Shown in pieces: positions 5,078 through 64,000 of a stretch of DNA of 64,000 bases (position 1 is its first letter; every line of letters starts with the position of its first letter). The notes under the pieces were generated by a model, which was not told the DNA's origin, did no database searches, and worked only from the letters and a program-made list of their open reading frames with translations. The DNA lies in assembly GCA_964106915.2 (NCBI GenBank), contig OZ066917.1; one strand, written 5' to 3'. Made by a program: the position numbers and the translations under genes. The DNA comes from Podarcis gaigeae. Taxonomy: Eukaryota.

Positions 5078-5122
<45 letters not shown>

Positions 5123-6944
5123 ATCCCGCCCACCCTCCCCAGCCAAAGCCGGGCTCAGAGTGGCTGTATAGTCAAATTTGGAAATTTTTCACTCTGCTTC
5201 AACCAGATCAAAGTTTGTCTGTGCCACTGTCTTTCATAAACACGTGATGAGAGAAGGCATTGCAACTTTTACTTACCCAGTATATGAACTACTTACCCAA
5301 CACCTGCATTTCCTCTTGATTTTGTAGCTGGAATAGAATTAATGGTTGTGTTTATTTTTCCTTATGCACCATGTTCCTCTCTTGGCTCTACCTAGCAACT
5401 TGTGATAACTTCTGGTGATGAACAGATTTGGCAGATTTACCACCTAGATCATTAGGAAGTGCAGTTGTGAAGAAATTGAGACTGCTCTTTTTAAAGTTCT
5501 GAAACTCATACACTTTAAAGTGGAATTTCTGGGGAAGTGGCCAAGAACTATTGATGGCAAATATGCTTCTTAGGATGAATACAGAGAAACCCTGATATTT
5601 TAAACATTCCAGATATGTGCAAGCCTCATTTGTATTTTCTGTGTTGCAGTGTTTCTAAAGGCAAGTGCTTGGAATAGGGCAAGGATTGGGAGCCTACCAG
5701 CTTTTCCTCTGAGGACCAGCTGTTTAATAACTTAAGAGCCCTGCTGGATGAAGCATATCTAGTCTAACACTATGTTCTCACAGTGGCCATCAGATGCCCA
5801 TGGGAGTACCATAAGCAGAACCTAAGTGCAACAGTGCTCTCACCACACATAACTGGTCTTCAGAGGTATTTTATTTCGGACAGTGGAGGTAGAACATAGC
5901 CTCCATAGCTGGTGGTCATTGATAGCCTTGTCCTCCACAAATCAGCTGAGCAGGGTAGGAACACCTGCCATAGGTGATGCTATAATTGCGGCATTGAGCA
6001 AGGACCATGACTTGGTTCTCTGTATTTGTAACCCTGTCTAAAAGAATTGCAAGCAATCCTCTCTTGACTTTTTAACCAGCAAAAGAGTTGAATATAGTAT
6101 TTTAGCCCTGGCAGTTCTGCAGAGATCTATTTTCGCAAGACTTCCTGATGCTGGTGTCCATAAGGCATGTGCAGCACATTTCATTAGGGCTGTGCTTACC
6201 CAGTAAATTAAATTGAAACACAGTTCTTATGAAGCCAAACAAAAGGAGAGCGAGCACAAGGCAGAAGAACAACAGACAAAGACACACAAAGTGGGGGGGG
6301 GGGTAAAAAGAAGGGATGGAGACACGGGTGAACACACGGAGCCCATCTGTGCCCCCCCCATCCCATAGTCACTACTTTGCATTATGGCTTCTGAGTCATC
6401 CCCAAAGCAAACCCAAAACTCCTCACAGGCTGACTCCACTCCTACTCCTCCACGAAGTCTAAGAATGAGACACAGGAACAAGCTATTCGCTGCTGCTGCT
6501 CCTCTTGTTACACACACAAAGCAGAGCCAGCCAAGAAGGCCTTGCCATGCTCTGACTGCTTCTCCAAACACGGGGGTAGGAGCGCTCCCTACTGCCATTG
6601 TAAAAACATTGCTGAGGCTGCAGCCACTTTTTCTTTTTCAAGACATTAGAGCATGTATGGGCACACCCAGAAAGTATGCCTACATTGATGTTTTTGTATA
6701 TTTCAAAATCCTGGAGTAAGAATATTGTGAAATGTGTCACTGCCTGCTCCTCTTGTAGCAGCACAGCCTGAGCATTGAATGAGATGTTTTAGCACGAACC
6801 TTGCAGTTTGCCATGCCTCTAAGCCCACTGAAATAAATTTGATTTTCCACAGTAGTGGATTGTCAACCTCTTCTAGCTATTTGAGGGTCCCAGTTTGCCT
6901 ACTCAAATGCTTTTTCTTTTCCTTCATCCTTGTTTTTGGAACAG

Positions 6945-7073
6945 GTAGCATGGGACCCTGCTCTTTTGGAGACCCCTGCCGAAACCAAGTTTGACTACAC
7001 AGTAACGAACCTGGCTGGTGGGCCAAGACCTTATTCTCCTTTCGAGGAAAGCTACAAAAAAACAGTGCTGAAG
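6945..7073 (+). CDS. ACP6: ACP6 coding exon 2
   Basis: Acceptor ...GGAACAG|GTAGCA. Translates [43 protein letters not shown]. Donor AAG|GTGACC. 129 nt. Confidence 0.92.
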
Positions 7074-7154
7074 GTGACCCAACATGTATTCCTTTGGAAA
7101 TGTTGCATCTCCATTTATTTTTTCAGCCATTCAACAGAGCTTTTCTCTTCCCAG

Positions 7155-7285
7155 GGCGGAGTGAATGCAGGCCAGCTGACGAAAGTAGGAATGCAGCAGA
7201 CGTTTGCACTGGGGAAACGGCTAAGGAGACGTTACATTGAGGAGACCCATTTCCTCTCGCCAGCATTCAAACCTTCTGAGGTCTT
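7155..7285 (+). CDS. ACP6: ACP6 coding exon 3
   Basis: Acceptor TTCCCAG|GGC. Translates [27 protein letters not shown] (GQLT motif of the HAP family). Donor TT|GTGAGT. 131 nt. Confidence 0.93.
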
Positions 7286-7595
7286 GTGAGTCTCTGAACA
7301 CTCCAATTTCCTTCCTAACAGCTTTCTTGCTCTTTCTGCTGACTGTTCCGCTCCCTCCAAGCCCACACGGCATCATAAGCCTTAGCAAAGTTTCATCCAA
7401 AGTCCTCGCTTGCTTTTTCCCACACCACTGTGTTCAGTTTGTTAAGAATCTCCAGCTAGAACAGATAGCAGCGCTTGGTACTGCCATATTGGTGGCTCAC
7501 AGATTGCTGAAACCCCTCAAGTCCCACCCCGTGTCAGTTTGTACAGGGAGCAGCCCACTGTGTTCCCATTTCATTGGCTGCCTTCTGTCTTTCAG

Positions 7596-7675
7596 TGTCC
7601 GTTCCACTAACATTGTTCGGAATCTGGAGTCCACGCGGTGTTTGCTAGCTGGGCTGTTCCAACAGCAGAAAGAAG
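7596..7675 (+). CDS. ACP6: ACP6 coding exon 4
   Basis: Acceptor TCTTTCAG|TGTC. Translates [26 protein letters not shown]. Donor G|GTCAGC. 80 nt. Confidence 0.93.
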
Positions 7676-7812
7676 GTCAGCAATGAAGGGGAGCTCCTTG
7701 CTCCTCTGTTCGCAGTCCTGCCTTGGAGTCTCTTTCCTAACAGAGATCTTTACACCACTGTTCTCTTTCTAGATCTTCTGTTTATCACTGTCTATTATGC
7801 CATACCCTAGTG

Positions 7813-7948
7813 CAGTGTTTCTCAGACTTGGGTCCCCAGCTGCTGTTGGACTACAACTCCCATCATCCCTATCTAGCAGTACCAATGGCCAGGAATGATG
7901 GGAGTTGTAGTCTAACAACAGCTGGGGACCTGAGCTTGAGAAACACTG
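7813..7948. mobile_element. Non-autonomous hAT (Charlie-like) MITE, palindromic
   Basis: Termini CAGTGTTTCTCA...TGAGAAACACTG. Exact 8-bp TSD CCCTAGTG at 7805-7812 and 7949-7956. Internal inverted GACTACAACTCCCATCAT arms. Confidence 0.9.
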
Positions 7949-8474
7949 CCCTAGTGGATTCTGATAGGCTACACTTGCACTCTAAATGAGGAATTTCACG
8001 TTTAGAAGGAACTGGTGACTACTCAGAAAAGGAGTGCTATGTTGGCTCCCTTGCTGCAACTCCTAGGGTAGAGGATGTAGTTTGCAAGGTTTGTGGTGTT
8101 GGTGGGCTTTTATTTGTACAGTCATGCAATTGGGTGCAGCTCATGCACTGCATCATTTTGGGAATGTTTTCACTGGGGGGGCTCACCATGGCAACTGCAT
8201 CTGGCCCAGGAGCTAGTAGCATGTTGCAGAGCTGGCCTCAGAAGGGCCCAGACCCCTGCTGCTCCCACAAGTATACCTCTTGCTGCATGCCTGCTTCACA
8301 ATCCTTTGTTAATGCATGCAGGTATCCTCTACATGCCTCCCTTTACCCAGGCAAGGCAAACATCAATCATAAGTTTCTGAGACAGCAGAGAGCTTGACCC
8401 CCGTAGTCAGCACACCTTGCATCATGCCCATTGCACCATTGACACCCTACTACCCTTGAGAACTGAAGGAGATG

Positions 8475-8994
8475 GAAAATTCAGCGGCCAGGTTGCTCAC
8501 TGGAGCAAGACGGTCTGAGCATATTACACCGATCCTAGTCTGACTGCACTGGCTACCAGTTAGTTTCCGGCCCCAATACAAAGTGCTGGTTTTGACCTAT
8601 AAAGCCTTAAAACGGTTCAGGACCACAATACCTCAAGGACTGCCTCTTTCCATATGAACCTACCCAGTCTCTGAGATCATCTTTTGACGCCCTCCTTCAT
8701 GTGCCGCCTCCTCGAGGTCCAGAGGGTGGCAACACGAAAACGGGCCTTCTCTGCAGTGGCTCCCTGTCTGTGGAATGCTCTCCCCAGGGAAGTTCGCCTG
8801 GCACCTTCATTATACACCAGGCAAAAATGTTCCTATTTAACCAGGCATTTGATTGACATTCTATGCCCTTTTAAAATGTGTTTTCTTGGGGGGGGTATTG
8901 GGGGGTTGTTCTTTATTTTGATTATGTATATTGTGGTTTTATATTTTGACTTTATTCTGTGAACCACCCTGAGACCTCTGGGCATAGGGCGGTA

Positions 8995-9032
<38 letters not shown>
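8475..9032 (+). mobile_element. L2-clade LINE 3' fragment with (TTA)n tail
   Basis: Degenerate RT C-terminus NSAARLLTGARRSEHITPIL..LHWLPVSFR..YKVLVLTYKAL. Ends TGTGAACCACCCTGAG...GGGCGGTATA(TTA)n. Confidence 0.75.
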
Positions 9033-9033
<1 letters not shown>

Positions 9034-10341
9034 AATAAATCCAAAATTTACAGGAAAAAAGAGACAATGCAGGCAGAAAGAATGAGAAGGAAAAGGGGGG
9101 CAAAAAGGGAAATTGGCTAGTTCCATCTTCCTCCCAACTCCCATGATCAGAGTTGTGGTTCAAAACATGGGGGGGGGGGCACATTGGGGAAGGCTGACCC
9201 AGCTATTAGTCCCATTTTCTTGGAATCGCAGGTGGTCAGAGCACTGTTGCACTCAGGTCCTGCCTGAGGGTTTCCCATAGGCAACTGGTCAGCCATTGTG
9301 GACTAGGTCGGACCTTAGCTAATCCAGCAGGCTCTTCTTATGTTCCTAAGGAGAAGGATCGAAATGATGCTGCTAACTGGCAGCCAGAACAAAACTAAAT
9401 GGGAAGGCAATGGCCATACTGCGTGTGGCATGCACCTTGAGGGTTGGGAATGAGCCTCTATTCAGAACCTTTAGTTGCCCAGCTTTAGAGAAAGATGGGT
9501 AACTTGGGTCCTCTTGATGTTGCTGGACTAAAACTCCCACCGTCCCTGGCCATTGCCCATGCTGGCTGGAGCAGATGGGAGCTAGAGTTCCCAACCACAT
9601 CCAAAGGGCCACAGATAACCAACCCAGCTCTCAAAGATTCCATATGCTGCTCTGAGCAGGCACCAAACTTATATGTGGAGCTGCACAGAGACCAGAAAGA
9701 AGAATGGAACAAACAAGTTAAATCTCAAAAGTTTTGATACTAGGATTAAGTAAATTGCAAAGTTCTGCTACCAAAACATTTGTGCATAAACCACTGTTTC
9801 TTGCAGAAACTCTTATTGTGTTAAACCTGATTATTGGGAAATGATTAGGAGGGGAAGAACGCTGCGCTTACTTCTGGTTTTGTAAACCCCAATGTTTACA
9901 ACGGTGGCTGTTACAAACTGCTTTGATTAAGATAATGGCATGCTGTGGTGTAAATTAATTTACAAGTAAGAGAATCATGTGGTGTAAGTCGTTCTGTGTA
10001 AGAGCAGAATATATCACCAACAAGTATCTGAAGGCATGTGTTAATAAGTGTGCTTTGCTGAGCATTTAGCACAGTGGGCTCTTGCCTTATTAGTTTGCAG
10101 GCATGATTTAATGCTTGCTTGAAGCACAAATGTAATTGGGAGCATAGACTTGTATGCTCCCAAGTGCAGGGGAAGTTCCCTAATGTGCTTTGCACAAATG
10201 AGGGTCGAGATGGGTAAGAGATTGTCCTAGGATTATAAACTATTTTAAATCAGTACAAGATGTGTTTGAATTAATTCTCAACAGCCCGAAACTTTAAACC
10301 ATGAATTGCAAGTGCATTCAATGTTTTTTTGTCTTGTACAG

Positions 10342-10429
10342 GACCCATTACCATAGTTACAGATGAAGCAGACTCTGAAATCCTTTATCCCAACCCAGTG
10401 AACTGCCATGGACTGAAAGTCATGAACAG
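10342..10429 (+). CDS. ACP6: ACP6 coding exon 5
   Basis: Acceptor TTGTACAG|GACCC. Translates GPITIVTDEADSEILYPNPVNCHGLKVMNR. Donor AG|GTAGCA. 88 nt. Confidence 0.9.
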
Positions 10430-12120
10430 GTAGCATGCCACAAACATTCTGTCTGGTGCCACTGTGCAGACAGAGGGTGCAGTAGTTATTGCAGCAAGGC
10501 CTTTCAGAAGACCTTGACCTAAATTATATGCATGACATCAGTTGATTGCCAAAAGCAATGTGCTCCCCTAAACCCTGTGAACGGTTCTGGATCTGTTCAA
10601 GCATTTAAAAGAACATGTGAGAAGTGTTCAAACTGGGCAGAGGAGCATAACCTAGCCACCCCTGCTCCTCCTTTTGCAAGAAGGATTGAGCTGCATTCAG
10701 AATCATCTTTATCAGGAACTTGTGCAGTCAGCATGCAAAGGTTTGCTGGGCTGGGGAGCTGCACATTTTCACATGCTTCAGTTTGAGCCTTCATACACGC
10801 TTGAACCTGAAAGACACCTTCTGACTTCCTGGGGGCGGTTGGCTTGTTGCATCCCTCACAGAACGGTTCCAGTGTTCCTCTGTGAAGCAAGCCCAGGCTT
10901 GCCATTCTTACCTTGCCTCTTTCCCTGCACTTTTTATGCCATTGCAAAAGTCTCCTTAGGGAATGATTGTGTCAGATGTAGCCATAGCCTAAAAGCTGCT
11001 GACGTGTAAGATTGTGAGACGAGAACAAAATGGCCAAAGCAAATCATGCTCTTATTGTATGTTACAGTAGTTGTGCAACTATGTTGTGAATAGACTATTT
11101 TCAATTAAAAAAAAAAGCAGTTGGAATGAAAACTTATGAAGTAGCCTACCATACTTCTGTGTCTCACAGCTTGACTACTTAAACGGCTCAGATGATAGCA
11201 TTTGTTTCCCCAAACTTATACTGTAGCGACCGGTTGCATTTTGTGGAGCGGCTATTGTGCTTGCTGTAGGCTCCTCTGGGATTATGATGGGAAAGGGCTC
11301 TCTAATATGCTGCTTGACAATTCTAGTGATTCGGTGAACTGCGTAACTGGTGCCCAGTCAGCTCAAATAAAAGCAAGTATGATCACGCTCTTGTCAAAAG
11401 CCCATGGGACAGAGAGTGAACGCCAATTCCCTAACTCCTGGCAGAGCCAATACGATGCTATTATAATCACTATATTCTAAAACAACCCCATATGCAATTC
11501 TGCTTCTCTTTTAAGAACTGCATCCGTAACAGTTTCCTTTTCAGGGAAGCTGTGGCAAAACTAGGAATTTTCAAAGGTGGCTGTAGGCAAGCTTGCCACC
11601 TTGTCCCTGCAATTGAAGGGGCCTGGGGCCGTGCAACATCAGTGTGGCGTGCACACATGATGCAAGCATGCCCTGTGGACCTGGCCCCACGTCCCCCCCC
11701 CACTTGGTGCCCCTGGCCATAGGCTACTCTTGTACAATGGTGCAGCTAACCTGTGGTCCCTTCCAGATGTTGCTGGGCTCTCAAATTCCATCACTCCTGG
11801 CTGATGGGAGGTGGGGTCCAGCAACATCTAGTGCACCATTGGTCATTAACATCTGCCCTAGTGAGGCAAGAGCTATTTAGTTATTTGCCCTGAAAAAGAT
11901 CTGAGTCAACAAATGAAAAATTACTTTCACGTGCTTAAGACCTCTTTCTTTTTTGTAACTAATTCTGATGCATTTAGTTGTCTATTGGTCAAGCAATCAT
12001 TTTAAGCCAAACAGCCCTGCACTCCTTTTTCCCTTCTAACAAGCAGGGGGATTCAAGCACAGTAGTTTGTGCAGATTGCCATTTATGCATTATTCTGAAG
12101 CTTTCATTTTTCCTTGACAG

Positions 12121-12256
12121 AGAGAGGCTGGCCAATGTGCTTCTTCTGCAACCAGGAATTGCGGAGGATCTGAAGACCATTAAAGAGAAGATGGGCCTTG
12201 ACAGCAAGAATGGGGCAGACTTCTTTCTGCTTTTTGACAACATTTTTGCAGAACAG
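12121..12256 (+). CDS. ACP6: ACP6 coding exon 6
   Basis: Acceptor TCCTTGACAG|A. Translates [45 protein letters not shown]. Donor CAG|GTATGC. 136 nt. Confidence 0.9.
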
Positions 12257-13221
12257 GTATGCTGTGTCTTCATAGGAACAAGCCTGTTTTCTTTAGCCAT
12301 CCAAGTTGATTCATGCAGGTCAGTGAGAGAAGCTGTGCTGAAGTAGAGCAGTGTGGCAGCCCAGGAGCTGATGGGCTCCAGCTCCCATTAGCCCAAGCCA
12401 GAATACCCCATGCCCAGGGGTGATGGGAGTTGTAGTCAAGCAATGTATGGAAGGCCACGTGTTCACCATTTCTGTGCTAGCAACTATTCAGCAGAGTAGC
12501 TCTTGTTGCAAATCGGGAAACCAAGACAGCTCTGGCAAGAGAGGAAATCATGTGTCTTCCTTCAACTCCCTCCTCAAACATCACATTTTTTTGTCTTTTG
12601 TGTTAATTGTTTTAACACTTCTCCTTTTTATCTTTCTCTCCATCCCCCCAAAATGTATTGCCTTTTACACTGGCAAAATAGATAAGCTCTTTCTTGCTGT
12701 CGTTGCTTATGAAAATCTCCAAAGTAGCTTGTAAAATTATTTAATCGACTGAATTTCTCTTAGATCTTACCTAGGACCTGATAACACAGAAGTAGGTTAC
12801 AAGAAGCAGTCAGTATGATATCAGGGAGGGGTTGGGCCCAATTCTGTAATTCCCTCCTTAGGGTGTATCTGTGCTCCCAATATTAGATTGATCCCCAGTG
12901 CATCATATGAACAGATAACACATCCTGAGTTGGACCTAGTAAGTGGTCCAAGGTGGGATATTGGCAAAGGCCTGCTACTCCACTTTATCTCAGGTTTGGC
13001 ACTAAAGATTAAACTGGATGTGGGAAAAGCTTGCATGCCGAGACATTTTAAGGGGTTACATCAGTTACAGCAGAGGGAATACTGAATACTGTATGCTGAA
13101 CATGACTATTACGGATGCTTAGGCTTTTAAGTGGCCAAGGATTGTTTTGTTGTTTTATCCTGAGATCAATAGATATAGAGTAGGCTAGAAATGTTGTAAT
13201 AGGAAAAATAATGCTCTAGCT

Positions 13222-13357
13222 CAGTGTTTCCCAACCTTGTGCCTCCAGCTGTTTTTGGACTACAATTCCCATCATCCCTTGCCACTGGTCTTGCTAGTCA
13301 GGGATGATGGGAGTTGTAGTTCAAAAACAGCTGGAGGTACAAGGTTGGGAAACACTG
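13222..13357. mobile_element. hAT MITE, same family as 7813-7948
   Basis: Palindrome CAGTGTTTCCCAACCTTGT...ACAAGGTTGGGAAACACTG; the TSD is imperfect. Older degenerate copies lie near 4725-4830, 9490-9630, 11740-11860, 12350-12480, 16080-16200, 43230-43340 and 62278-62990. Confidence 0.8.
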
Positions 13358-13681
13358 CGAGTCTAGCTGGGTAAACCAGTATAATTATCTATCAGTAAAA
13401 GCAAAGCATGTAACAGCAATAAAAATATGTGCTTTCAACATTCAGGGCTCCCTTTCTTTATGGATTTGTCTGAAAAAGCCGTGCACCGTCATTATGGAGC
13501 TTCTTTCTCCGAGATGCTTCTAACCACCCCAGGGTTTCCTGCAGCCGAGTTTGAAAGCCATTTTTGTACAACAATACGCCTCACTGAATACTTAAAACTT
13601 GTAGGAAATGAAATGAAATGAAACCTAGGTTCCTCATTGTAAACTTTCCCCTATCCTACTGTTGTCCTTCTGATCCAGTCT

Positions 13682-13820
13682 CATAGAATTCTATGGTTGG
13701 AAGAGGTCCTGGGATTCATCAAGTCCAACCCCTGCAATGCAGGAATCCTGTCCACCGCTGTCCCAGGGTGGGCTCGAACCACCAACCTTCTGGTTAACAG
13801 CCAGATGCATTGACCCATTA
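13682..13820 (-). mobile_element. tRNA-Asn-derived SINE with CR1-like tail
   Basis: Minus strand reads ...TGGCTGTTAACCAGAAGGTTGGTGGTTCGAGCCCACCCTGGGAC, matching the tRNA-Asn(GTT) anticodon arm, B box and 3' half. It is followed by a CR1-like tail ...CTTCCAACCATAGAATTCTATG. A related partial copy lies at about 58716-58790. Confidence 0.7.
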
Positions 13821-13868
13821 TGCAATTGTTTTAAAATTACTGGTTTTATATTTTAATTTTTTACTGTA

Positions 13869-14235
13869 CCGTATATACTTGAGTATAAGCCGACCCAAAT
13901 ATAAGCTGAGGCACCTAATTTTACCACAGAAATAATTGGGAAAACTTACTGACTAGAGTGTAAGCCAGTTCACCACACCACAAACCTCCTGGTGGGCCGG
14001 AGTGCCTGTGCGTGTAGATGGCAACTAACAGACAAACAAGCAGAAAACTGACAGCGGCAAAGGCGGAGGAGGAGGAAGCAGCCGTCAGAAAGGGCTGCTT
14101 TTGGGCTGCTCGTTCCTCCACCGCCACCACCTCCGACAGTGGCAAAGGGGACCCTCACTCGAGTACAAGCCGAGGAGAGCTTTTTCAGCATAAAAAATGT
14201 GCTGAAAAGGTCGGCTTATACACGAGTATGTATGG
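13869..14235. mobile_element. Tc1/mariner-superfamily (pogo/Tigger-like) non-autonomous DNA transposon
   Basis: TIRs of about 27 bp, CCGTATATACTTGAGTATAAGCCGACC / GGTCGGCTTATACACGAGTATGTATGG, flanked by TA at 13867-68 and 14236-37. Confidence 0.8.
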
Positions 14236-14782
14236 TAACTTGCTGTTTGGTTTTTATATTGCTTTTGTAAACTGCTTGGGTCTTTCTTTTTGAAGTAAGC
14301 AGTATATAAATTTGTTAAATAAACAAACAAAATGAATATTGTGCCACTTCAGGTAATTATGTTGCCTGACTGTGGCAGCCAGCATTGTAGTAGGTAACAT
14401 AAGACATGGGAGGAAATGGTAATCAAGACATATGAATGGTCCCATTCATATGTCTTGAACTGAAATCTGTCCTCTACATGAAGATGTTTTCAGGTTGTTC
14501 AAGTTAAAACTAAAGGCTTGTTGTTTTTAAAGGGAATCACTCACTTGCTTATTGTAACAGTAATATAACTATTCATATATTTATCTGTTCACATTGTTCT
14601 TTGTCTTTAGACTTAGAGGAATGGCCTAGTTCCTTGTCTAACACAACTTGTTCAAGTGCATGTCCATGTTATGATATCTAACGATAAGCACATGTGTGTC
14701 CATGCCTGATCTAAAGTATTGGTGCCATTTGTCACTGCAGCCTTAGAGTTGTTATTTTAATTCACACTATGCTGTCTTTTAG

Positions 14783-14883
14783 GCACATGATCTGCCTAGT
14801 TGCCCTATTCTGAAGAGTTTCATGGAACTGATTGAGCAGAGGGCTATAGACTCACTCCTTTATGTCACAAAATCGAATTTAAG
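14783..14883 (+). CDS. ACP6: ACP6 coding exon 7
   Basis: Acceptor TCTTTTAG|GCA. Translates [34 protein letters not shown]. Donor AG|GTGAGC. 101 nt. Confidence 0.9.
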
Positions 14884-15159
14884 GTGAGCAGTCCCAGGGA
14901 TGGTATGGGTGGTAAGCCTGGGGATATCTGCAAGACAAACACAGAATCACTCTTCTGTTTTAAAACATGGACTTCTTGTGCAGACTAGTCATGTGTGTCG
15001 TCATGTGTGTCCCTGCTAGCCAGGAACCTTTACTTTTAAACCTGCTCATATTCCGATTAAGTTCTGCCAGTTATCTAGAACTGTTAAAAGATGTTGCAAC
15101 TCTTGTTAGAAACATTTTTTTTAAAAAATGGATCTCTGTTTTGTTTTATTTCTGACTAG

Positions 15160-15255
15160 AGAGTCTCTCAAGATGTCAGTTGGTCCTCTACTCAATATAA
15201 TAGAGAAGAACATTAAGGCGGCAATGAACCCTTCCTCTCCTGAAATCAAGGCCAG
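15160..15255 (+). CDS. ACP6: ACP6 coding exon 8
   Basis: Acceptor TTTCTGACTAG|A. Translates ESLKMSVGPLLNIIEKNIKAAMNPSSPEIKAR. Donor AG|GTATGT. 96 nt. Confidence 0.9.
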
Positions 15256-15706
15256 GTATGTAGATTATTGGTATTTACGGTCTTGGCAGAATATCCCATT
15301 GAGCAGCATCTACAAGCTAAAAACATTGAAAAGGGAAATGGGACAAATCAAGGGGAGCAGGAGTTGATGGAACAGTGACAATTGCACCATTTAAGATGTG
15401 TGTATATATTTTTAACTGGGTAAAGGTGACTTGTAAATATTCTAACTTTAAATGGAAGTTATGTAGAACTTAGCTCACAAAAGCAGTTTCATATGAACAA
15501 ATACAAACTAGGTGCTTGTATGTGGAAGACAGAACAAAAAGGAGAGGAAGGAATGCTATTAGCCTGATAATTCTCAATTTAGCTTATTACATCTACCAAC
15601 TGACTTGAGATTCAGTGTAAATGGAAAATGCAGCTGCAATGGCTGCTATACACAATGTATGTCATGAGCAAGACTGAATTATTGGTCACTTCTTCTTTTA
15701 TTTTAG

Positions 15707-15866
15707 AAAGCTTGCTCTGTATGCTATTCACGATGTTACCCTCTTCCCACTGCTATTGGCTCTGGGGGTCTTTGATTCCAAGTGGCCTCCATACGCAGCA
15801 GACATGACAGTAGAACTCTACCAGCGTTCCAAGGACTGGTTTATACGGCTGCTCTACAATGGAGAG
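15707..15866 (+). CDS. ACP6: ACP6 coding exon 9 (catalytic HD motif)
   Basis: Acceptor TTATTTTAG|A. Translates [53 protein letters not shown]. Donor GAG|GTAGGA. 160 nt. Confidence 0.93.
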
Positions 15867-16301
15867 GTAGGAGGCTCCATGGTGATGATGTTACACATAT
15901 AAATGGGACCTCAAGTGAGATTTGGGCAGGAGGCAAATTCCATACTCTAGCTTGCACAACATCTAAATACAAAGGCTGTTAACAGATAAATCACTGAATC
16001 TGAAATGCGGGGATCTCATACCTGTTTCAAACTAACTTTTGGTAACTTTTAAAGCAACTCTCTTTGCAAGGCTGGCAGTAGTGATGCTGTATGTCAGGAT
16101 ATCAGGACTCTGGCCCTCTAGTTGTCACTTGACTACAAATCCCATCATCTCTGACCACTGACTGGTACTGTTAGGAGTCTAATAGAATCTGGAGGACCAC
16201 AAAGTGTACGAGATTTTTTTTATTTTTATTTTTGCCCAAGGGCCTCTTGTAATGGCAGTTGTTTGGTGACGTTAATGTTGATTTGTCTTGTCTTTCCGCA
16301 G

Positions 16302-34261: not shown

Positions 34262-34314
34262 CTCTGGGCATTTCCTGATGGGGAATTTCTCACTTTGGGG
34301 TTACTGGAATGCAT
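34262..34314 (-). CDS. BCL9: BCL9 coding exon 1 (CDS part; the whole exon is 34262-34558)
   Basis: ATG at 34314, MHSSNPKVRNSPSGNAQS. Donor AG|GTAAAT. The exon's acceptor is TTTGATTCAG|TTTGCC at 34559/34558. Confidence 0.92.
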
Positions 34315-37300
34315 TGACAGAAATCCTAAGCACACAGCCACACACACTGAGGGGGGCTTCTTGTCAAGTTCCTCTGTTGCTGCTGGCAGTTCTGAAGCAC
34401 TTTCTGTCCCTTGCTTTCCTCAGTGCTGTCGGTCTGCTTGTCTTTTTCCTTTTTGCTTCTCTCTGTTGTTGCACTGGGCCTTTCCCTCTCGCAGCTCCAG
34501 CATTCTCCAAATGTGTGACTCCTGCTGTTGTGAGGAAGTCTCGCATCTCCAGGGCAAACTGAATCAAACCCAGTCAAAGAACAAAAAAAGACTATTAAAA
34601 AGGGGAGGAATCTAGAACTAAATGAGAGCAGTATATGGCCTTTTTTTCTCCACCTTTTTAACTGGAAGGGCAAGATGAGAAAGCTCAACCAGATGGAAGC
34701 TGAATGTACATTCCGATTATAAAATAAATGCTTTTCCGGTATTAGCTACGTAAGCAACAACTAGGTGTGCTAGATCTAACAGATGAGAGGGAGGAAGTTT
34801 CTCTGTACTCCAATCCAAGATCATGTACAAACACATTTATGTGTAGAGAAGCAAGTTGCTTGTATCAATCAGTTCAAGCTTTCTAAAAGTACTACGCAGG
34901 CCACATCACTGCAAAAAGATATAGCAACATTTTTAGAAGATCACACAATTATTAGCACATCTTAAAAACAGGTAACAATTACCCTAGTGAAACACAAGAT
35001 GGTAATGGGAGGAGGGATCATTTAATGACTTCTGAATAATCAATATCCACCATCAAAATTACTGCATCAAAGTGCTAAGTATCCTATGTCAAAGTTGCTA
35101 GGCCCAATTTTCTAGACTATTGTCCATAAATACTATGTCTCAATCTACATTTAAATGAAAAGTTAGAAACACTGAACATTATGGTGTTTGAGCAGATTTT
35201 AACACAGGGCTTATTCATCACTACTATTACTAAAGGAATCTAAAATGTTTTTCTTCTTCATGCTGAAGAGTTTTGGAACAATTTTATATCAGATTCAATT
35301 TATTATCACAGTTTTTATATCAGAACAATTTTTGTATCTGAATGAAAACTAGATTACCAACCTCTAACACTGGATGATAATATTCAAATTAAGTATTTTT
35401 TCATAATTCATAAGTTTATAAGCTATGAAGAAAGTAAAAGTATACGAAAGTAGTATTTACTGGTGAGATTTCTTTGAAACACAGCAGTATATTTTGAAAG
35501 CAAAAAAACCCTTTTGTGCTGCTGAAATATACTGCAAGCATCTTCATATGACAATGTCGTAATACTGAATTTTGTCACTCTATGACACAGCATCAACATA
35601 TCTTAATATCAGAAGATAGCATCAAGACATTTAAGTTCTTTTCCTCCTTCTACCATTCCTTCCTCAAATGCTTCCAAGTCTGAAGGAAGGAAGTCCTACA
35701 AATTTGGCAAAGGATCCCCATACTCGAAGTATGTAAGGCAAGAGAGATTTTTAAAAGATTTATTATTTTTGCTCATTGCAAGAAGAAGAATGTGCTAATT
35801 AAATTTCAGATAAGGTCACGGGACAGCTATTACTAACGTTGATGCTTAAGAACCTACAAGAAATCCAATCCAATCTGCATTAAAGAACTGTATTTTACAT
35901 AAGCCATATACAGAGTTATTGTGAGATCTTATTCTCACAAGCACAGGACTCATTCTGCCCGAGAGCATATGCTAATGCCCACAAATTAGACTTGGTGGTT
36001 TTGAGAAACGAGACTTCTAGAAGCATTTTTAGTAGAAGTGGACAAGCATGCTTATTTAAACATTTTGGATGTGCCACATCTGAATCTGCTGTAAGCCAGG
36101 CTGTATTTCTACCCCTTCACCCGTAAAACATTCAAACACAAGATGGTAGGCATGCTTTCACTGAGGACAAAAGACCATAGCAGACTACACAGAATATGAA
36201 GCAGGAGATGAATTCAAACGCTCCTGTCTACTACAAATCATCCCAATATAATGGGCACTAATTTCACTTATCAATCCCAAAAGGCAAATTTTATTATTAT
36301 TTTCTAGGTTAATGAAGCTAAAATGCAAGTCATCTTTTGGGACATGTTGGACAGGGCACATGTCTTATAGAAAAGCAAGCTTTGCCAGCCTCGTTTCTGT
36401 TAATGCCACTGTCTCAGAAGAAACAATCCACAAAAGTTACTTTCAACCCAAAGTGCAGAGTTCACTGCAATCAGGACATCAATGGTCCATTCGTTCTTTT
36501 TGTAATATACTTATTATACGCAGCCATTTGACTTCATCCCTGGAGGCACACTCCATTGTCTCTCGAGACAGAGGGATGCCAACAATATTATGCTGTCAAA
36601 TGTTACAGCCAAGCAGACCATTATTAAAACCAATTTCAGTAGCTCATTCTTCAATATAATGTAGGGAACCCTGTATTTCTGCAAGCCTTTTGGCCTGTTC
36701 CCTTTGCTTCTAAAGGCAGCTTACCAGAACTCCAGTGTCACGACATTGTACTGATCATCCTGAAAATGGGTTCAGAAGCCCTTTGTAGACAAAAAGATCA
36801 CCTGAAATAAGACAAAGCTTCATCAAGCAAAATCCACAGCAAAATGAGTTTTGCCCAAAGCAAAAGAAAATACACCCACCCAGTTTTGGAAATACAGGGC
36901 CAAATTAAACTAACCAGTTCCACTACTGGAAGCCTGAACAAAGTCTCCTGTAGTGCAACAGGGGGGCCCCCCACACCCCTCAACGGCTTGAGGTGTGTGT
37001 GTTGGGAGATCCCCTCCCACAACAGAGAACAAGGGGAAGAAAGGGGAGATTGTTCCATCATGCAAGCAGATAGCTTGCGCTGACAAAACATTGTTAACAG
37101 CATGACATTGTGTTCCTCCCACCGCATCTGGAAGCATACAGTACTTGACAGCTTATCTGCCCTGATGTTTAAGGATTGGTAGACAAGGTGTATTACAAAA
37201 GACCTGCTAAGGAGGCAATTGCTCAACAAGTTGCACTGAAACAGAAGAACTGTCTCATCCAAATGATGGAGAGATGGATGGAAAGAGGGACACAATCCTC

Positions 37301-50704: not shown

Positions 50705-52899
50705 GAGATGAGGTCCCAGGTCACTCTTATTTGGCTTAAAACCATAAGTGAGAACAAAAAAAAAAAATCCTGAGCATCATTATTTAAAAGTGCAACATCT
50801 TCCACGTTCAATAAAGATAGTCCATGTTCACCATATTTTAATACACGACTCATAAATGCAACATCTAACTTGACACCAAAATAATATGTCAAGTGGCACG
50901 CTTTAGATAAATGTAAATCAGTGTAAATTAGCTGCAGCTCTTCTGCTGGATTCCCCCCCCCCCAGCACACATTGACCAGGTTGCTGAGCCCTACCTCAAG
51001 CTAAGCAAAATCAAGTAGATAAAGAGGAAATAAATGTACAGTATGTTGAATTAGTTTTACATTCCAAATTTGGTTTATGGACCAAAAATTTACCAGGTAG
51101 TTTTGAGCTAGCTCACATTCATCACACTATTCTAACCAACTGGCTAAATTTCATTTCATCTGTAAGCTGAATGGAAGAGCCATAATAATGAGAACATACA
51201 TGCCATTTAAAAGCATTTCTTAACACACCACACTCAGACAACAGTATTCAAAGTGATATATAAATGAAGTTCTTAGCTTCATTTGTGCAAGTGCCCTCAG
51301 TCCCCCTCAGATAGAAAGTACTGAGGAACTACCCCTCCAGGAATCGCTGCAATGACTACAGACTGTGCACACTTGAATATATGAATTAAAAATAAAGCTG
51401 AATGGAAGCAAGTGATATTTGTGGATGATATGATGTGCCCACGCTGCTATACTCCAATGTGCTTTTCTTTTAACTACTTTTACACAAATGTTTTCTGCTT
51501 TGCCACCATTTTACAACACATTAAAATAACTCAAGTTTCAGTGCGAACCAAAATAGACATTTTTTTCCTCTCATCTTAACACAAGTTGATGGACTGCATA
51601 GTCAGCCTACTCTGTTGTTTATTTAAATGGAGCATTAGTTTAGTAAGAAAAAAGTAGCAAACAGGGAGGTAGAATAAACTGAATGCAAAGACTGCCAATC
51701 TGAAGTTAAGATAGCACACCAGAGTATTTAGCATTTCAGAAAAAAACCAAGTTCTCTTTGTATACTACCCCTACATCAACATTCAAGTGACCTAAAGACC
51801 AGACTCAAGAAAGGCTAGGAGGAAAAGGCCCTACTGAATTGTGTGGCCTCTCCTACCTTCAGCTATGAAACTACGTACTAAACTACGTACTAACTCTACA
51901 TATCACAGGTCAAAACTTAGGAGCAAGTCTGTCTCCCCATTTACAAAAAGGGTTTTGGAATGTAAGAGCAATTAGTCTATTACTTTAAGACCAATGCATA
52001 GTATGATCTAATCTGTATGTAGTTCTAACTACAGAACTAAAAAATGACTGAATGTGTAAATTTCCAGGGTGGAGATAACCTCAACAGATTTGCACCATCT
52101 ACCTACGCATGCAATTAAGCAAACAGGTACTGACCAATATCCACAGCACTTCAGTAGAAATTATCAAGCCCCTGATTTTTATTCTCCCCCCCCCCCCGCC
52201 CAAGATCTACAGCTCCCTTTAACTAGCAATGTGGAATAGTACTCCTTGCAGACTGGGCATCTAGTTCACAATCCCTCTGACCAGCATTGTTGGGAGGGGG
52301 AGCACTATGCTCTCTGGTCATGTACAGAAAGACCTCTTAAACAGCTCTGCACACCTTACTTTCTTAACAGCCTTGCGGAGGGTCGCCTACGGGCACCCCA
52401 TTTCCACACACTGGATGCACAAACCGTTTTCTTACCCCCTTGCACTTTTATTCTTCTGTACCGCCCCCTCAGGCCCATGACGACTGCTTGGCAGCCCAGA
52501 AGACACAAACACACACTCCGTCCCTCTCCCCCCAACCCCACCTCAAAGCCTAAAGCAGCTCCTCACCTCCAGAAGCATCTGCAAAATCCTCCCCCCTTTC
52601 AGCGGCGACCCACAATGGCAAATCCCCTTATTTAACTGGAACGGGGAGAGGAAAACGAGGGTGGGGGAGTGTGAAGCGTTCCTTACCCCCAAATTCCCAG
52701 GCTCACTCCGTTTCTTCCACCCTGTTTTCATAACCCAGGCTGCCTTCCTCCGTTACCCACAGAGACGCACGAGACCCCCCGCCCCGTCCCGAAAGGGCTG
52801 GCATCTCCTGCCCAGACACCCGCCTTGCCACAACACGCACACCATCCACACACACACCAAAGCGCATCCACATACTACTCCGTGTACACAGATAGCCCA

Positions 52900-54720
52900 C
52901 CCGCCCCCCTTTTCCCAGACTCAAGGTTTCTCTCCCCCCCCCCCCCCGGGCCGTTTGTTCTTCCCCTCATGCGATGGACACGCCTCTTCCCTCCGGCCTC
53001 CTCCACGGCTCTCCTTCCAACCCGCCCCCCCCCCGCCCGTCCGCCTCGGGCGACTACTCGGAGCCGCCCCCACCCCCGCCTCGCTTTGCCAATCGCCGAC
53101 CCCTCCCGCCTCTTTCCCTCCCGCCCGCGCCCCCACCTCACGCTCCCCGCGCCCGCCCGCGCCAGGTTTTTCGACCAGCCCCCAAACTCCGAAACTTTCC
53201 CCCGAACAGGCAGGCGGGAGGGCGGTTACCCGGTCCTCTCGCCGCGTCGCCCCCCCCCCCACCAGCACCACCTCAACACACGCGCGCGCACAGCCCGCCT
53301 CCCCACGGCCCGCAGTTTCCACGGGTGCCGCTGGCACCATGCGGAGGAGCCTCCTGCCCGCCTCCCTCCGCACGCTCACCGCTCTTGCCCACCAAGGGCG
53401 GAGGGGCCTGGCCCGGCCGGGGGGCACCTCTCAGCCCCGGGCAGGAGGCGGCGGCGGCGGCGCAGCGTCTCCCCCCGGCGACGGCGAACTCGCTCCTTTC
53501 CCGCAAACACACACAGGCTCCATTGTCCGCCAGCCAGCCAGCCTCCCCCCTCCTCCTTCTCCTCCTCCCCCTCTCCCACATGGTACCGCCCATCGCCCCT
53601 CGGCCTCCCTCCTACTCTTGCGCGCCCCCCCCCCCCGTCCGCTCCCCGCGAATGAAGCAGCCTATCGCGCGCGCACTTCCCCCAACCCCCCCGGCCCACC
53701 CAATCAATGGAACGTCCCCTCCTCACTCACGGGCAGACTTTGACTTCTCCAAGCCATCAGGGCCGCCTCGCCTCCCCAGCAACGGGAATGGTAGTGTCCC
53801 GATGGAGAGATGGGGGGGGGCTAGATCCCCCCCTTTCCTCTCTCTCGGAATGGTATCAACTGATTCCTTAAAGAGACAGGCCTTGAATGCATGGGTCCTT
53901 CCTCCCCTGTAAAGCAGCACCGCCCTCACCTCCCTCCATTCATCCTGGCACCGCCCCCGCAATTAGCATAGGCCAGCCCCATACCTCAAGGTAGTTTTCT
54001 TTCCGCCGCCTCTTCCCTCTTAAAGACGCAGCCACCCAATGGCACTTCTTAAAGCGACATGCTGCCCTTTAAAAAAAATATTCTTTTCCCCCCACCACAC
54101 ACACACACCCCGCAAAGCCATCTCCACCAGGAACTCCTCGGAGCCAGCCTGGAATCTCGGCACGTTTATTTCAAGGCATCAGAAGGCATAGAAGTGTCTC
54201 TGTGGCAATGCGAGGGGGAGGCACACGTCCCAAGCCTAAGCCACACCCAGGCAGGGCGCGCACACACACAAAAACACACACACGGACGCTCTGCACACTT
54301 CCCACACCTCAGGGCCCCTCGTCTCCCAGGTACGGCAGCCGCACCGCACGCTGCAAGAGCACACACAACACCTCGCCGCGCTGAGATGCGTAAGCCTGAA
54401 GCAGGCTCTTACCAAAATCAAGAGACAGAGCGAGTGAGGCAGGGAGTCGGGCTGCAGCGCAGCACAGGGCGAACACACGTTCTCCTCCCGCTTCCACTTG
54501 CCCCCCCCCCCCCAAAAAATAGCAGACACTGATTTAAAGAGCATGTCTGCACCATCCATCTCAATTGCAGGCGCACAAATTGGATTTTGCAGAATTAAAA
54601 GCCTAGCTCTCTGGCCGGGAGGTCGGGGTCGTTGTATTAATTCAGGAGATGCATTCCATCTCGGCGATCGGGCGCCCCCCCGAATCTGATCGGCTCCCAG
54701 ATTTATTCTCTCCTTCCAAC
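52900..54720 (-). promoter_or_regulatory. BCL9: CpG island / BCL9 promoter with putative first exon at about 53380-53590
   Basis: Very high GC and CpG. Minus-strand donor GCG|GTGAGC at 53380/53379. CCAAT boxes at about 53700 and 54036. A more distal first exon may exist beyond the window. Confidence 0.65.
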
Positions 54721-57700
54721 CTCACACGCCCGCTCCCCCGTCTTGTGTGCCCTATTACATAAACCCTGCGGGCTATCAACCAAACCAAACGCATCACACG
54801 CTTTAATGTTGCTAGGTATACTCCAGATCCATTAAAATCTATGGAATTGTGGTCACTGGTATCGATAGGTATGTGGATTGCACCCGTATGACACTTCGCT
54901 GGCAAAACAGACATAAAAAAGCCAAAAGGCGGCGGGGGAAACATGTTCATATTGATTTAATACAGCTCCTCTTGGCCTGTGGATTGTGGCTAGCTACAGA
55001 TATCCACAAACCACAGTGGTTATAATGAATTTGCAGGGATTAGCTTCCAGCATTTTTAATTTCCACACGTCTTTACAATTAAACGGCAATGAGATGAAAT
55101 GAAAATTTGTGCCTCCTTTTCTTGTCTCTAGGAGGCAGGAGACTTAACCCTCTCCACCATATACTCTTACTAAAGTTCAATTCTCAAGTTTAACCCCTAA
55201 CATATTTCCTCCTGTTTCCTTTCCTCACCCTCACATTCGAGTGGGAATTTTGCACCTTACATTTGCCCATCCCCTCTCAAACCCACCCCCACAACAAAGA
55301 GATGGAAAACAGAATTGGCACTAACTTTTGTGAATATAGCTTCCCATTTTGAGCATAATGGAATACAGGAGGCAAATCCACATTGTCTCCTTCGTTGTAT
55401 TTTGAACTGGAGGCACCAACCAATAGTAACAGAAACAGCCAGTTCTTCAGTTCCCTTTGTAGCCGAAATTCACTGGGGCTATCATGGGCACCACAGTGGA
55501 GGATGGGGAAAGATGTGTCTGTAAGTCATGTTTCTGAAGTACACAACAAGCACTGAATGTGAACATGGAAAGTGGTAATTTAGCTTCCTAAGAACTTTGG
55601 TTTCCACTTAAAACAAAAAACAAGTTACTAGCCCTTATGGTTGCATAAATGAATACACAGTGCCTGACACACGCAGCCAAGAAAACCGAAGTGTGTGGGA
55701 CATGGGTGAGAGGGAGAGGTAGCTCTGAACTGCTTTTAATGGCTATAGTGCATGAGGATATGTATTTAAGCATCGATTCTTTCACATACTTAAAAAAACA
55801 GCAAAAGTGTGTTCTCATTGTGAGCACTCTATCATGTACACACAGAAACCAAGCCCAAACATGCAGATCTGTTGTACCAATAAGATTTCGGGGGGCAGTT
55901 TCAACTTTCCACAGTACAATTTAAAGCCCTTTGAAAACTTCCCAAACCAGTTTGCCCATAGACCATGGTGTATGTGTTTACCACAGGCTATGCCAGCTCC
56001 ACAGTGCCACTTCCAAGCCTCTGAGAAGTTATCACCTGTACGCATTTTATATTTCATAAGGTCTCATAGAAGGTTTTTGGTTTTTTAAAGTAACTTGCAT
56101 GCTGAGCAGATAGAGCGCATCTACCCATGACCCACCCACTCACCCAAGAACCTGTGCCCATTGGTGGAGAAGGAAATAAATGCACAAATAGGCTAAGTAA
56201 ATGATCCTATCATAAACGGATAAAGAGAACAAAGTGATATGCATTAGGACCAAGACTAAAATATCTCATAACAAAATACACATCTTTATGGAAGGTTGAT
56301 ATGTGGTTTTCTAAATATGTTTCGTAAACATCTGAAAGGCCCTGCAAATATTATTGTGCAGGGCATAAATAGGAGGCTGTCTTTCAGAAAGCACAGGTTA
56401 AGAATCTGTTGCAATAATGATAATATTTAGTACTTGTGTTGCACTTTATAATGTTCCAAGCACTCCATGTACATTGTGATTCTTGTTACACTCCTCGAAA
56501 GTAGGTCAGCATTATTACACCCATATTGCAGATACAATTTCCATATCAGTTGCCTGTATCCACCCACTAAGTTTGCAGCTGGGGCAACCTCTTTGCACAG
56601 CTCACACTCAAAGACACTATTGGATAGCAGATCTCCTAAAATAATTTTATTATTATTAATTATTATTTTTATTTAGTTTGCTAGTTGCCTTACAAAGACA
56701 GCCTGGAGGCAACATACTAGAAATCTAAAACAAAAAAAGTTTTTTTAAAAACACACAGACACACATAAAGAATTAAGATTATAATATTTAAAAGCATATC
56801 AACTTCATTTATTTAAAATGGGATTAGATATTTTCATGGGAGGCAGGTCCTTGAACAAGCACTAGCCACAATTACTAAATGAAGCTTCCCAATTCAGAGA
56901 CAAAATTCCTTTGAATATCAGTTCTTGGAGGGTAGGCAAACATCAAGAGAACTTTTGCCTGAATGCCCAGAACTGTCTGGTTGACTACAGTTGGAAAAAG
57001 AATGCTGTACTAGAAAGACCCTTGCGTCTTTCCAGCAGGACTCCTGCATTCTTAAAACCAGCACAACAAGCAAGGTTTATATGCTACTTTTTAAAGAAGC
57101 ACTTTTAAAAAATGGTGTTCTCTATCCTCAGGCTAAAGAGGTGCATTCCCCCACCTAGTTCCCAATTCATTTTGCTGCATGTGTAGGGCTTTTTCAGTGC
57201 TGGCACCCCAACTCTGGAGTTCACATGATCTCAGAGAGGTTTGCCAGATTCAAGCACTGCACTTTTTAGTGCCAGATGAAGGCCTTTTCATCTGCCCAGG
57301 CATTTTAGAAGTTTATAATTGCTGTTTGATCTAACAGTTTTAAATCCTTTTTGCCTCTGGTTAATTTTGGTTTTATTGTTCTGCCCTTTACAGTTATTCG
57401 GTGGCTTTATGCTATTATTATATTTCCATCTGGTGGCAATGTAATCACTAATTTACCATTAGATATTCGGCCAAACTTATACAGTTATTACACCAGGAGG
57501 ACACACATGACCATAATGCCACAAACCAGTTCCTTGTTAGTTCACCACTGTCTTTTCGTTTTCAAAAGCGATTTCAGTGTGGTACTGTTCAATTAGCTGA
57601 TTTATTTTTATAAACAATAACAGTGAGAGGTTTTTGTTATTGCAGTTTTGGCACATGTTCAGGTTTCTGATGATGCAAAAGCTAACTTCACAAGAGTGTT

Positions 57701-61322: not shown

Positions 61323-62262
61323 AGGAACACAAGAAGAACCTGCTTGACCAGGCCAATGACCCATCAAGTCCAGCATCCTGTTCTCACTGTTGCCAACCAC
61401 ATTCCTATGGGAAGCCCATGCACAGAACCTGAGTGCAAGAGCACTCTCATCCCCTGCAGTTCAGAACTCAGCTGGTATTCAGAAGCATACTGCCTCCGAA
61501 AGCGGATGTAATAGCCCCCTGGGGTTAATAGCCAGTGGTAGCCTTATCCTCCATGGGCTGTCTAATACGCTTTTAAAACCGTCCAAGTTGGTGGCCGTCA
61601 TTGCCTCTTGTGGGAGCAAATTCCATACTTTAATTATACACTGTGTGGAAAAACTACTTTTTTGTCTGTCCTGAATATTGCAACATTTAGCTTCATTGGA
61701 TGTCCACGAGTTCTAGTGTTATGAGGGAGAGAGAGAAATTTATCTAACCACTTTCTCCATGCCATGCTTAACTTTATAAATTTCTATCATATCACCTCTT
61801 ATTTGCCTTTTCTCTAAACAAAAATGTACCCAAAAGCTGAAACCTTTCCTCATTGATCATTTTGATTGCACTTTTCTCAACCTTTCCCAACTTTACAATA
61901 TCCTTTTTCAGATGAGGTGACCAGAAGTGCACATGGTATTCCAAATGTGGTCCCACCATAGATTTGTATACTGGCATTATGATATCAGCAGGTTTATTTT
62001 CAATACCTTTCCTAATGATCCCTAGCATGTAATTTGCATTTTTCACAGCTGCTACACACAAGGTTGACATCTTCACTGAGTTACCTGCTACAGCCCCAAG
62101 GTCTTCTTCCTGGTCAGTTGCCACCAGTTTAGACCCTCATGAGTGTACAGTAAGACTTTTAACCTCAAAGTGCATCATTCTACACTTGTTTACACTGAAT
62201 TGCATTTGCCATTTTACTGCTCATTTACTCACTTTGGCTTTGTAAAGCCTTTCTGTTTATTG
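61323..62262 (-). mobile_element. CR1 LINE 3' portion (RT remnant)
   Basis: ORF 61792-62124 encodes AVKNANYMLGIIRKGIENK...PVYKSMVGPHLEYHVHFWSPHLKKDIVKLGKV, a CR1 ORF2 C-terminus. The 3' tail is at 61323-61340. Confidence 0.85.
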
Positions 62263-63125: not shown

Positions 63126-64000
63126 TGATGAATCTAGTGAATGAGAAAACAAGATTGTCAAGGAATGTAGGAGTGCATAATTCTGGTCTTCATGAAACTC
63201 CACTGCTTTCAGATGCTGGATGCTCTCTGGCCCACAGTTAGCAACCTGCTGAAAAATGTTTTGAGAAAGGGCATGTTCCAAGTGATGGCTCAGACATCAC
63301 CCTAGACTTCCCACATCATTAATAAGGGCAAATGAACTTTCAAAGACAAGTCAGAAACCTATTCTGGACAATAGAAACTATGAGAAATCCATCCCTGGAT
63401 GATGTCCCAGACTTAGTAATACTTGACAGATGGAACTCTGCTGATGATCCAATTGTTGATTCATTTCACAAACCAGAAGATAAAGGCAAAAAGCAGCACC
63501 AGGATTTTCAGAAGGATGACGCTGAAAATTGTGCATGTAATATCTATGATACTAACGGAAAGAACTTCCTTGCTCTTTTGAACAGCCCACAACCCAAGGC
63601 AAAGACAAAAATACAAGTGCATGATGGTGCCATCATTATTCATTATTTGCTGCCACATGTACATTTTGATAACTATGCACATTTCACATTATCCTCACAT
63701 TAACTGGTGCCTGTTTCCTTTGGCACGCACGTACACACACACACACACACACACACACAAATTCAGGTTTGGCACTTAGGCCACTGAACCAAGCATGAAA
63801 GAAACTGTTGCATGACAAGACTTTATTTATTCTTCATCATTTCTCCTTCTTCAATATGTTTTCCTTTTCTATTTTGGATGCTCCTCGGAGGAAAAAAAAG
63901 TCAGCACGCTTTCCTCATTTTCAAAGTTACGTTAGTACTCAGCCTTGTCAACTGTGGGAATCAGCTGCAGCAACTGCCTTGGGGAATGAATCCCCAAAGC

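Follow-up and report, generated by a model that had tools for sequence, protein, structure and literature searches.

The codons upstream of the BCL9 start in Podarcis gaigeae as a likely remnant of an older N-terminus split by frameshifts

Upstream ORFs (uORFs) are well known as a class, and an ORF in the leader of human BCL9 is already on record. The GENCODE catalogue of Ribo-seq ORFs contains c1norep199, a 45-aa uORF in the BCL9 leader that is classed as 'conserved' and credited with 0 MS studies (Sandmann et al. 2023, PMC10032668, supplement file 2, row 101), with PhyloCSF scores of -79.62 in primates and -458.97 in mammals (PMC10032668), and a BCL9 5'-UTR smORF with negative PhyloCSF and mammalian similarity is described in the Fig. 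4f legend of Martinez et al. (bioRxiv 10.1101/523860). As reported by Zhang et al. (2021, PMC7889888), non-overlapping AUG uORFs keep their start better than their peptide. Vertebrate readthrough genes, namely OPRL1, OPRK1, AQP4, MAPK10 and VDR, carry a UGA_CUAG motif (PMC5868278), and Ivanov et al. (2011, PMC3105428) name as a class the antizyme-type +1 frameshift that leads from a uORF into the main ORF. For zebrafish bcl9, two annotated isoforms that differ in their first coding exon are given, and the leader is otherwise unmentioned in the accessible text of PMC6217730, PMC10287724 and PMC12477815.

Here, we describe the BCL9 leader of the lizard Podarcis gaigeae, in which 63 codons containing a single TGA precede the main ATG in phase. 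We consider it probable that frameshifts have split an older BCL9 N-terminus, of which these codons remain, and that its old start now opens a 27-codon uORF likely to dampen translation. Like the uORFs of PMC7889888, this one has a leader AUG and a stop ahead of the main ORF; whereas their uAUGs were newly fixed by mutation, the uAUG here would once have been the start codon of the gene, until a frameshift disconnected it. It shares with the UGA_CUAG genes a UGA between two in-phase open stretches, but CUAG is absent, and stop, phase and downstream segment are unconserved in that frame (compare PMC5868278). The antizyme type is resembled in several amniote-type records, in which a +1 frame overlapping the uORF runs on into the main ORF, but this frame is closed in the window and in turtle and human-type records, and no stimulator was found (compare PMC3105428). 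In the literature searched, which lay mostly outside subscription papers, we found no account of the leader ORF as a former coding N-terminus.

Layout of the BCL9 leader exon

The window, i.e., the whole 64,000-nt stretch of P. gaigeae contig OZ066917.1 (GCA_964106915.2) that was analysed, carries BCL9 on the minus strand. With three Podarcis proteins, its large BCL9 exon shares 99.5-99.6% identity, and with the next-best named record 95.7%. All of the 34 sampled words of the stretch (34/34) are present in two runs from a second sample and study under the same organism label, so an assembly error is unlikely; six RNA runs contain 0.09-0.15 of the sampled words and are evidence neither for nor against. 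The leader contains the following features.

34262..34558 (-): BCL9 first coding exon, with inferred splice sites at both ends; 244 nt of leader, followed by the initial 53 nt of the coding sequence
34312..34314 (-): main BCL9 ATG (MHSS..); non-amniote models have this Met inside the protein
34420..34503 (-): uORF2, 27 codons plus TGA; stop 105 nt ahead of the main ATG
34364..34546 (-): uORF1, 60 codons in frame +2, overlapping uORF2; stop 49 nt ahead of the main ATG
36725..36801 (-): putative upstream leader exon with a 6-codon uORF (36758-36738) and a nested ATG at 36746

The first coding exon is bounded by an AG acceptor before 34558 and a GT donor after 34262, and its junctions match the Crotalus model P0007 and other BCL9 proteins. 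The upstream leader exon (36801-36725) matches a Crotalus model at 8/8 residues and a turtle model at 5/5, sequence and splice signals being in agreement, and a nested ATG-codon-stop lies inside its 6-codon uORF. A first-pass annotation, made from the letters of the window, had reported an ATG at 34503 that lies 189 nt, or 63 codons, 5' of the BCL9 ATG at 34314 in the same phase, with a TGA at 34422-34420 between them, and all of these positions hold on the minus strand. The TGA (context CAC TGA GGA) is the sole frame-0 stop between the two ATGs, and there is none between the inferred exon start (34558) and the upstream ATG.

How unusual is such a layout? In shuffled sequence, the 35 codons after the TGA are stop-free in 15% of cases and an open tail is found in 15-54% overall; at most one stop in 62 codons occurs in 21%, to which the shared phase adds a factor of one third. 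The upstream ATG with its single stop is by itself not rarer than chance. What does lie far beyond chance, as judged by alignment, is homology of the leader to non-amniote proteins, which changes frame twice.

A long isoform might also be produced by splicing inside the exon that links the upstream ATG to the main frame. Both the Crotalus model P0007 and the Myodes model P0095 do join the frame of uORF1 to the main frame, but they use different junctions, and neither involves the MLEL frame that uORF2 opens. P0007 is moreover one of 70 amniote records with the main Met motif, and at the corresponding place the window would offer a weak GC donor, as assessed by eye. The internal splices of P0007 and P0095 are probably prediction artefacts, and an isoform made in this way is scarcely credible.

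Homology of the leader to non-amniote N-termini

All cross-species statements below refer to predicted proteins, whose starts were assigned automatically, are no proof of the initiation site and cannot reveal readthrough forms. With the next coding exon as query, 72 proteins were recovered. Models from amphibians, bichir, paddlefish, teleosts and sharks have extensions of the MLE[LV]- or MQEV-type, 57-99 residues long, that run stop-free into the MHSS motif; the teleost MLE.. N-terminus that the first-pass annotation had mentioned is thus seen in actual models. Among non-amniote named records, 64/72 contain an MHS-type motif, and 63 of these 64 have an open extension. Among amniote named records, 70/86 contain the MHSS motif, 69/70 start there, and MLE[LV] is found in 0/86; since these are automatic models, many of them congeneric, the counts describe a pattern rather than independent events. 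The ATG of uORF2 corresponds to the BCL9 start codon in the amphibian and ray-finned fish models. Of the two alternatives put forward in the first-pass annotation, the outgroup extensions and the amniote starts support the first, namely that amniotes have turned an ancestral coding N-terminus into a uORF.

Frameshift-aware alignment of the leader chose two shifts for 12/12 outgroup extensions, all of which score higher with the shifts than without them, by 1-35 (11-35 for most amphibians and 1-21 for fishes and sharks). The first shift was placed at 34455-34485 in 12/12 alignments, and the second at 34355 in 6/12, at 34346 in one and at 34388-34412 in five. We further scored three segments in each of three frames against 26 amphibian-type extensions, with 300 shuffles scored against 6 of the 26 as the null; the segment borders were picked after the result of the frameshift-aware alignment, and the mean scores in the following lines are to be read with this in mind.

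34462..34503 (-): codons 1-14, matching the ancestral protein in frame 0; mean score 43, reached by 0/300 shuffles
34356..34461 (-): putative remnant of an ancestral charged segment, in frame +1; mean 61, reached by 0/300 shuffles
34455..34485 (-): predicted frameshift 1; position varies with the outgroup, likely site an AG repeat at 34464-34458
34339..34356 (-): a C run plus TG repeat where frameshift 2 probably lies, from comparison with P0001 and P0155 and from the outgroup alignments

The last 13 codons (34355-34315) match amphibians in frame 0 again (0/300 shuffles), and the other six frame-segment pairs are reached by 60-256 of 300 shuffles, the figure for the middle segment 34461-34356 in frame 0 (mean 28) being 60/300. 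The first-pass annotation had read the whole as a single in-frame extension with one TGA: the layout stands as described, but one ancestral frame does not, because over the middle 35 codons the match to amphibians is confined to frame +1. In this ancestral frame, the three letters of the uORF2 TGA are divided between two codons; on the alignments, the TGA is an out-of-frame by-product of the frameshift, not a nonsense change. Frame +1 itself ends in the window at a TAG (34328-34326). Against Discoglossus it retains 12/22 identical residues by hand count, and its likeness to amphibians appears to exceed that expected from free decay, an excess that counts against a split N-terminus.

The lost segment contains a lysine/arginine/glutamate-rich motif common to sharks through frogs. 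In the ESM Atlas, all scores for the Xenopus extension were below 0.8, and hence no functional lead for the segment emerges from it. Nuclear entry of mammalian BCL9 depends on Pygo, and a role of the lost segment in nuclear import would be a guess. If the leader is a split N-terminus, Bcl9 of zebrafish and Xenopus should have an N-terminal addition of about 60-100 residues that is absent in mammalian BCL9, a difference that may matter when Wnt results from fish and frogs are carried over to mammals.

An older step of the same kind may be visible further 5'. Shark models start with MREF.., 14-16 codons before MLEV, and the window has an ATG at 34546, whose distance to the MLEL ATG downstream is 43 nt instead of 42. 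With one extra base allowed, the window leader matches each of two shark leaders at a level reached by 0/2000 shuffles, and in salamander and human sequences PWRC stands at the corresponding place in frame 0, consistent with the same offset. These comparisons suggest, with less certainty, that a shark-type start at 34546 may have been cut off by an older one-base shift, such that the start would have retreated twice in one exon. In the carpet-shark models P0068, P0218 and P0223, the MHSS Met is replaced by Thr, which argues that this Met is not an obligatory start in carpet sharks.

Amniote records and the human counterpart

To follow the leader in other amniotes, we used 25 amniote-type records, i.e., predicted proteins that read the exon in frame +1, of about nine sequence types; they were found through a +1-frame profile, which favours out-of-phase cases, and apart from turtle P0159 their assignment to birds or mammals is judged from sequence. 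In 20/25 records, of about five sequence types, frame +1 joins MHSS, 196-208 nt from the position of the old ATG, whose A falls on a wobble base in +1-frame records and is therefore not visible. The old ATG is out of phase in these 20 by construction, and it is the existence of such records that counts. The five that are not joined are turtle P0159, P0161, P0175/P0193 and P0180. As an outcome that would speak against its proposal, the first-pass annotation had named indels that shift the frame between uATG and main ATG in many amniotes, and such indels are what these records contain (20/25 out of phase, in a biased sample).

All amniote-type records that cover frameshift 1 carry it, the 25 reading through in one frame, and together with the outgroups this places the shift on the amniote stem, where a single event, probably a 2-nt loss in the AG repeat near codon 14, would account for it. 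Later indels vary among records. The frame-changing ones fall after the stop, and the sole indel inside the uORF is a loss of five whole codons in P0175/P0193, in what is a small and biased sample; record P0158 appears to carry compensating shifts. In the lizard lineage, a later indel would have restored the phase between uATG and main ATG by chance.

Several other searches accompanied this sample. When X was put in place of the uORF stop, the search yielded 2 hits among 16 candidates, both of which use frame +1; a protein search with the +1 frame alone returned no candidate, and a DNA motif scan of metagenome contigs yielded 0 stretches. One locus among 454 candidates from a P0180 scan was set aside as an unrelated chance match, its DNA similarity being not above noise, and the longer isoform of Elgaria P0114 was rejected as an extension because it starts at MHSS. 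We also dropped as support the observation that nine of ten record types are stop-compatible at codon 28, which is weak evidence given that codons 5, 14, 17 and 26 allow a stop in most records as well.

In human, c1norep199 contains the MLEL Met and stops 27 codons after it, at the same codon as uORF2 of the window, in line with the 27-aa human MLEL uORF named in the first-pass annotation. The two ORFs are thus homologous, with the same frame, MLEL Met and stop position; c1norep199 differs in that its entry begins at a further-upstream ATG and gives the origin as 'not_calculated', with no link to a fish or amphibian N-terminus in that entry (PMC10032668). The smORF of Martinez et al. also lies in the BCL9 leader, is translated and has a negative PhyloCSF; the comparison in its figure legend covers mammals only, and it may or may not be the same ORF (bioRxiv 10.1101/523860).

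The human reading phase was approached through record P0161, which by hand comparison is compatible with the human peptide in the next frame at 28/28 codons; by this fit, the human-type stop would be TAA. Frame +1 of P0161 ends before MHSS, and a 1-nt loss costs one substitution against two for a gain in 3/4 mammal-type comparisons, a weak preference. The human uATG is probably in phase like that of the lizard, apparently via a different indel, and the human start coordinate, which would give a distance of 204 nt, agrees with this. If human is in phase, phase has been regained at least twice, which counts against a split N-terminus with chance restoration. The supplements of PMC4739776, PMC7253449 and PMC5701008, searched for the human phase, do not contain BCL9.

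Hand counts of identity between lizard and human are 11/27 residues in frame 0 and 13/29 in frame +1, so that neither frame is favoured; with these counts and a PhyloCSF of -458.97 in mammals, the ORF does not behave as a conserved-peptide uORF. A former coding N-terminus would supply an origin for a human Ribo-seq ORF that is catalogued as conserved yet is not coding-like.

Recoding, neutrality and the old start codon

The second alternative of the first-pass annotation was a long BCL9 isoform, made by stop readthrough or from a non-AUG start. In its general form, programmed readthrough, selenocysteine insertion or A-to-I editing at the UGA would give a lizard BCL9 extended by 63 residues. 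The window is in phase with one stop, the stop is a UGA, and human is probably in phase too, all of which would suit such a protein. The 35 codons after codon 14, however, are not ancestral protein in frame 0, so that reading through the stop would not recreate the ancestral protein across these middle 35 codons. The stop context is UGA GGAA rather than UGA CUAG, as the first-pass annotation had already noted; stop identity is not conserved, the human-type stop being TAA; phase is lost in 20/25 amniote-type records; and the open tail is no more than the shuffles described above lead one to expect. No hairpin was found, and folding after the TGA (z +1.34 / +1.25) is no better than in shuffles. 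The window accordingly has neither CUAG nor the conserved stop and phase of a UGA_CUAG readthrough gene, and conservation past the stop in the same frame is confined to the last 13 codons. The selenoprotein signature of a SECIS plus a conserved in-frame UGA is likewise not seen in the window, where no SECIS reaches the Rfam gathering score (1-31800 and 32400-64000), nor is in-frame coding-like conservation upstream of the first AUG, as in non-AUG extensions of the Ivanov 2011 type. We regard a readthrough-extended lizard protein as highly improbable, and the alternative as a whole is unsupported. There is also a general caution here, in that an in-phase uATG with one stop can arise from two frameshifts, with no readthrough signal.

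Could ribosomes instead recover the ancestral frame? Those starting at the old AUG might slip into frame +1 at the AG-rich lesion, which would restore the ancestral long protein in any lineage whose frame +1 joins the main ORF, this bypass having been lost in lacertids, turtles and humans. Frame +1 does stay amphibian-like, and a stop-free join to MHSS is found in 20/25 records of about five types, with apparent compensating shifts in P0158. Such frameshifting is nevertheless impossible in the window, where TAG 34328 closes frame +1, and in turtle P0159, human-type P0161, P0175/P0193 and P0180; the joined state is also the ancestral default, the search favours joined records, and no stimulatory structure was found. 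Compared with the antizyme type, the +1 frame is discontinuous with the main ORF in the window and continuous in the 20/25 other records. Because frame +1 is amphibian-like and joined in several lineages, a small chance is left to this very unlikely mechanism; if it were true, BCL9 would be an unrecognised, lineage-patchy vertebrate frameshifting gene born of a 2-nt deletion.

The uORF might, on the other hand, be a neutral leftover with little effect on BCL9 output, in an exon constrained otherwise, for example by splicing or RNA binding. The negative PhyloCSF, the absence of MS support and the fact that no frame stands out between lizard and human would fit with this. But ATG, length and stop position are equal in lizard and human despite differing stop codons, the human ORF is translated, and frame-changing indels fall after the stop while the only indel inside the uORF comprises whole codons, albeit in a small and biased sample. 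A neutral leftover is unlikely, though of the readings weighed against the split N-terminus we give it the most credence.

For the preferred reading of a split N-terminus, the old start codon was left opening the 27-codon uORF ahead of a former internal Met, where it would act on initiation. uORF2 has the make-up of a non-overlapping AUG uORF, with a leader AUG and a stop 5' of the main AUG within the inferred exon limits. Its ATG has A at -3 and C at +4, and the main BCL9 ATG lies in a weak context with T at -3 and C at +4; position -3 is a purine at both uAUGs of this exon and a pyrimidine at the main AUG. Under the established scanning model, uAUGs in such contexts draw ribosomes away, leaving leaky scanning or reinitiation as the routes to the main AUG. 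In the window, it would be reached either by leaky scanning or by ribosomes that reinitiate 105 nt past the uORF2 stop or 49 nt past that of uORF1, and on the basis of the scanning model and the AUG contexts the uORF likely lowers BCL9 output. Selection would then act on the start, the stop and the leader sequence rather than on the peptide. If so, BCL9 would offer a datable example of a frameshift converting the coding N-terminus of a core Wnt co-activator into a uORF that is translated, and perhaps of this happening two times within a single exon. In several records, the protein begins at the next Met of the frame, which the following exon encodes; with the weak main AUG, leaky scanning past 34314 to a shorter BCL9 is possible.

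Elsewhere in the window, a neighbouring gene lies at about 2250-16000 (+), with an RHGxRxP histidine-phosphatase motif in the ORF 2253-3113; judging from synteny, the gene may be ACP6. A partial tRNA match at 13767-13823 (-), covering model positions 10-63 of 71, is possibly a tRNA-derived SINE. A GC-rich island at 52000-55000 (61% in 52001-54000) is likely the BCL9 promoter or first exon, and ORF fragments at 61792-62136 (-) and 63326-63703 are, by their appearance, presumably remnants of CR1-type LINEs.
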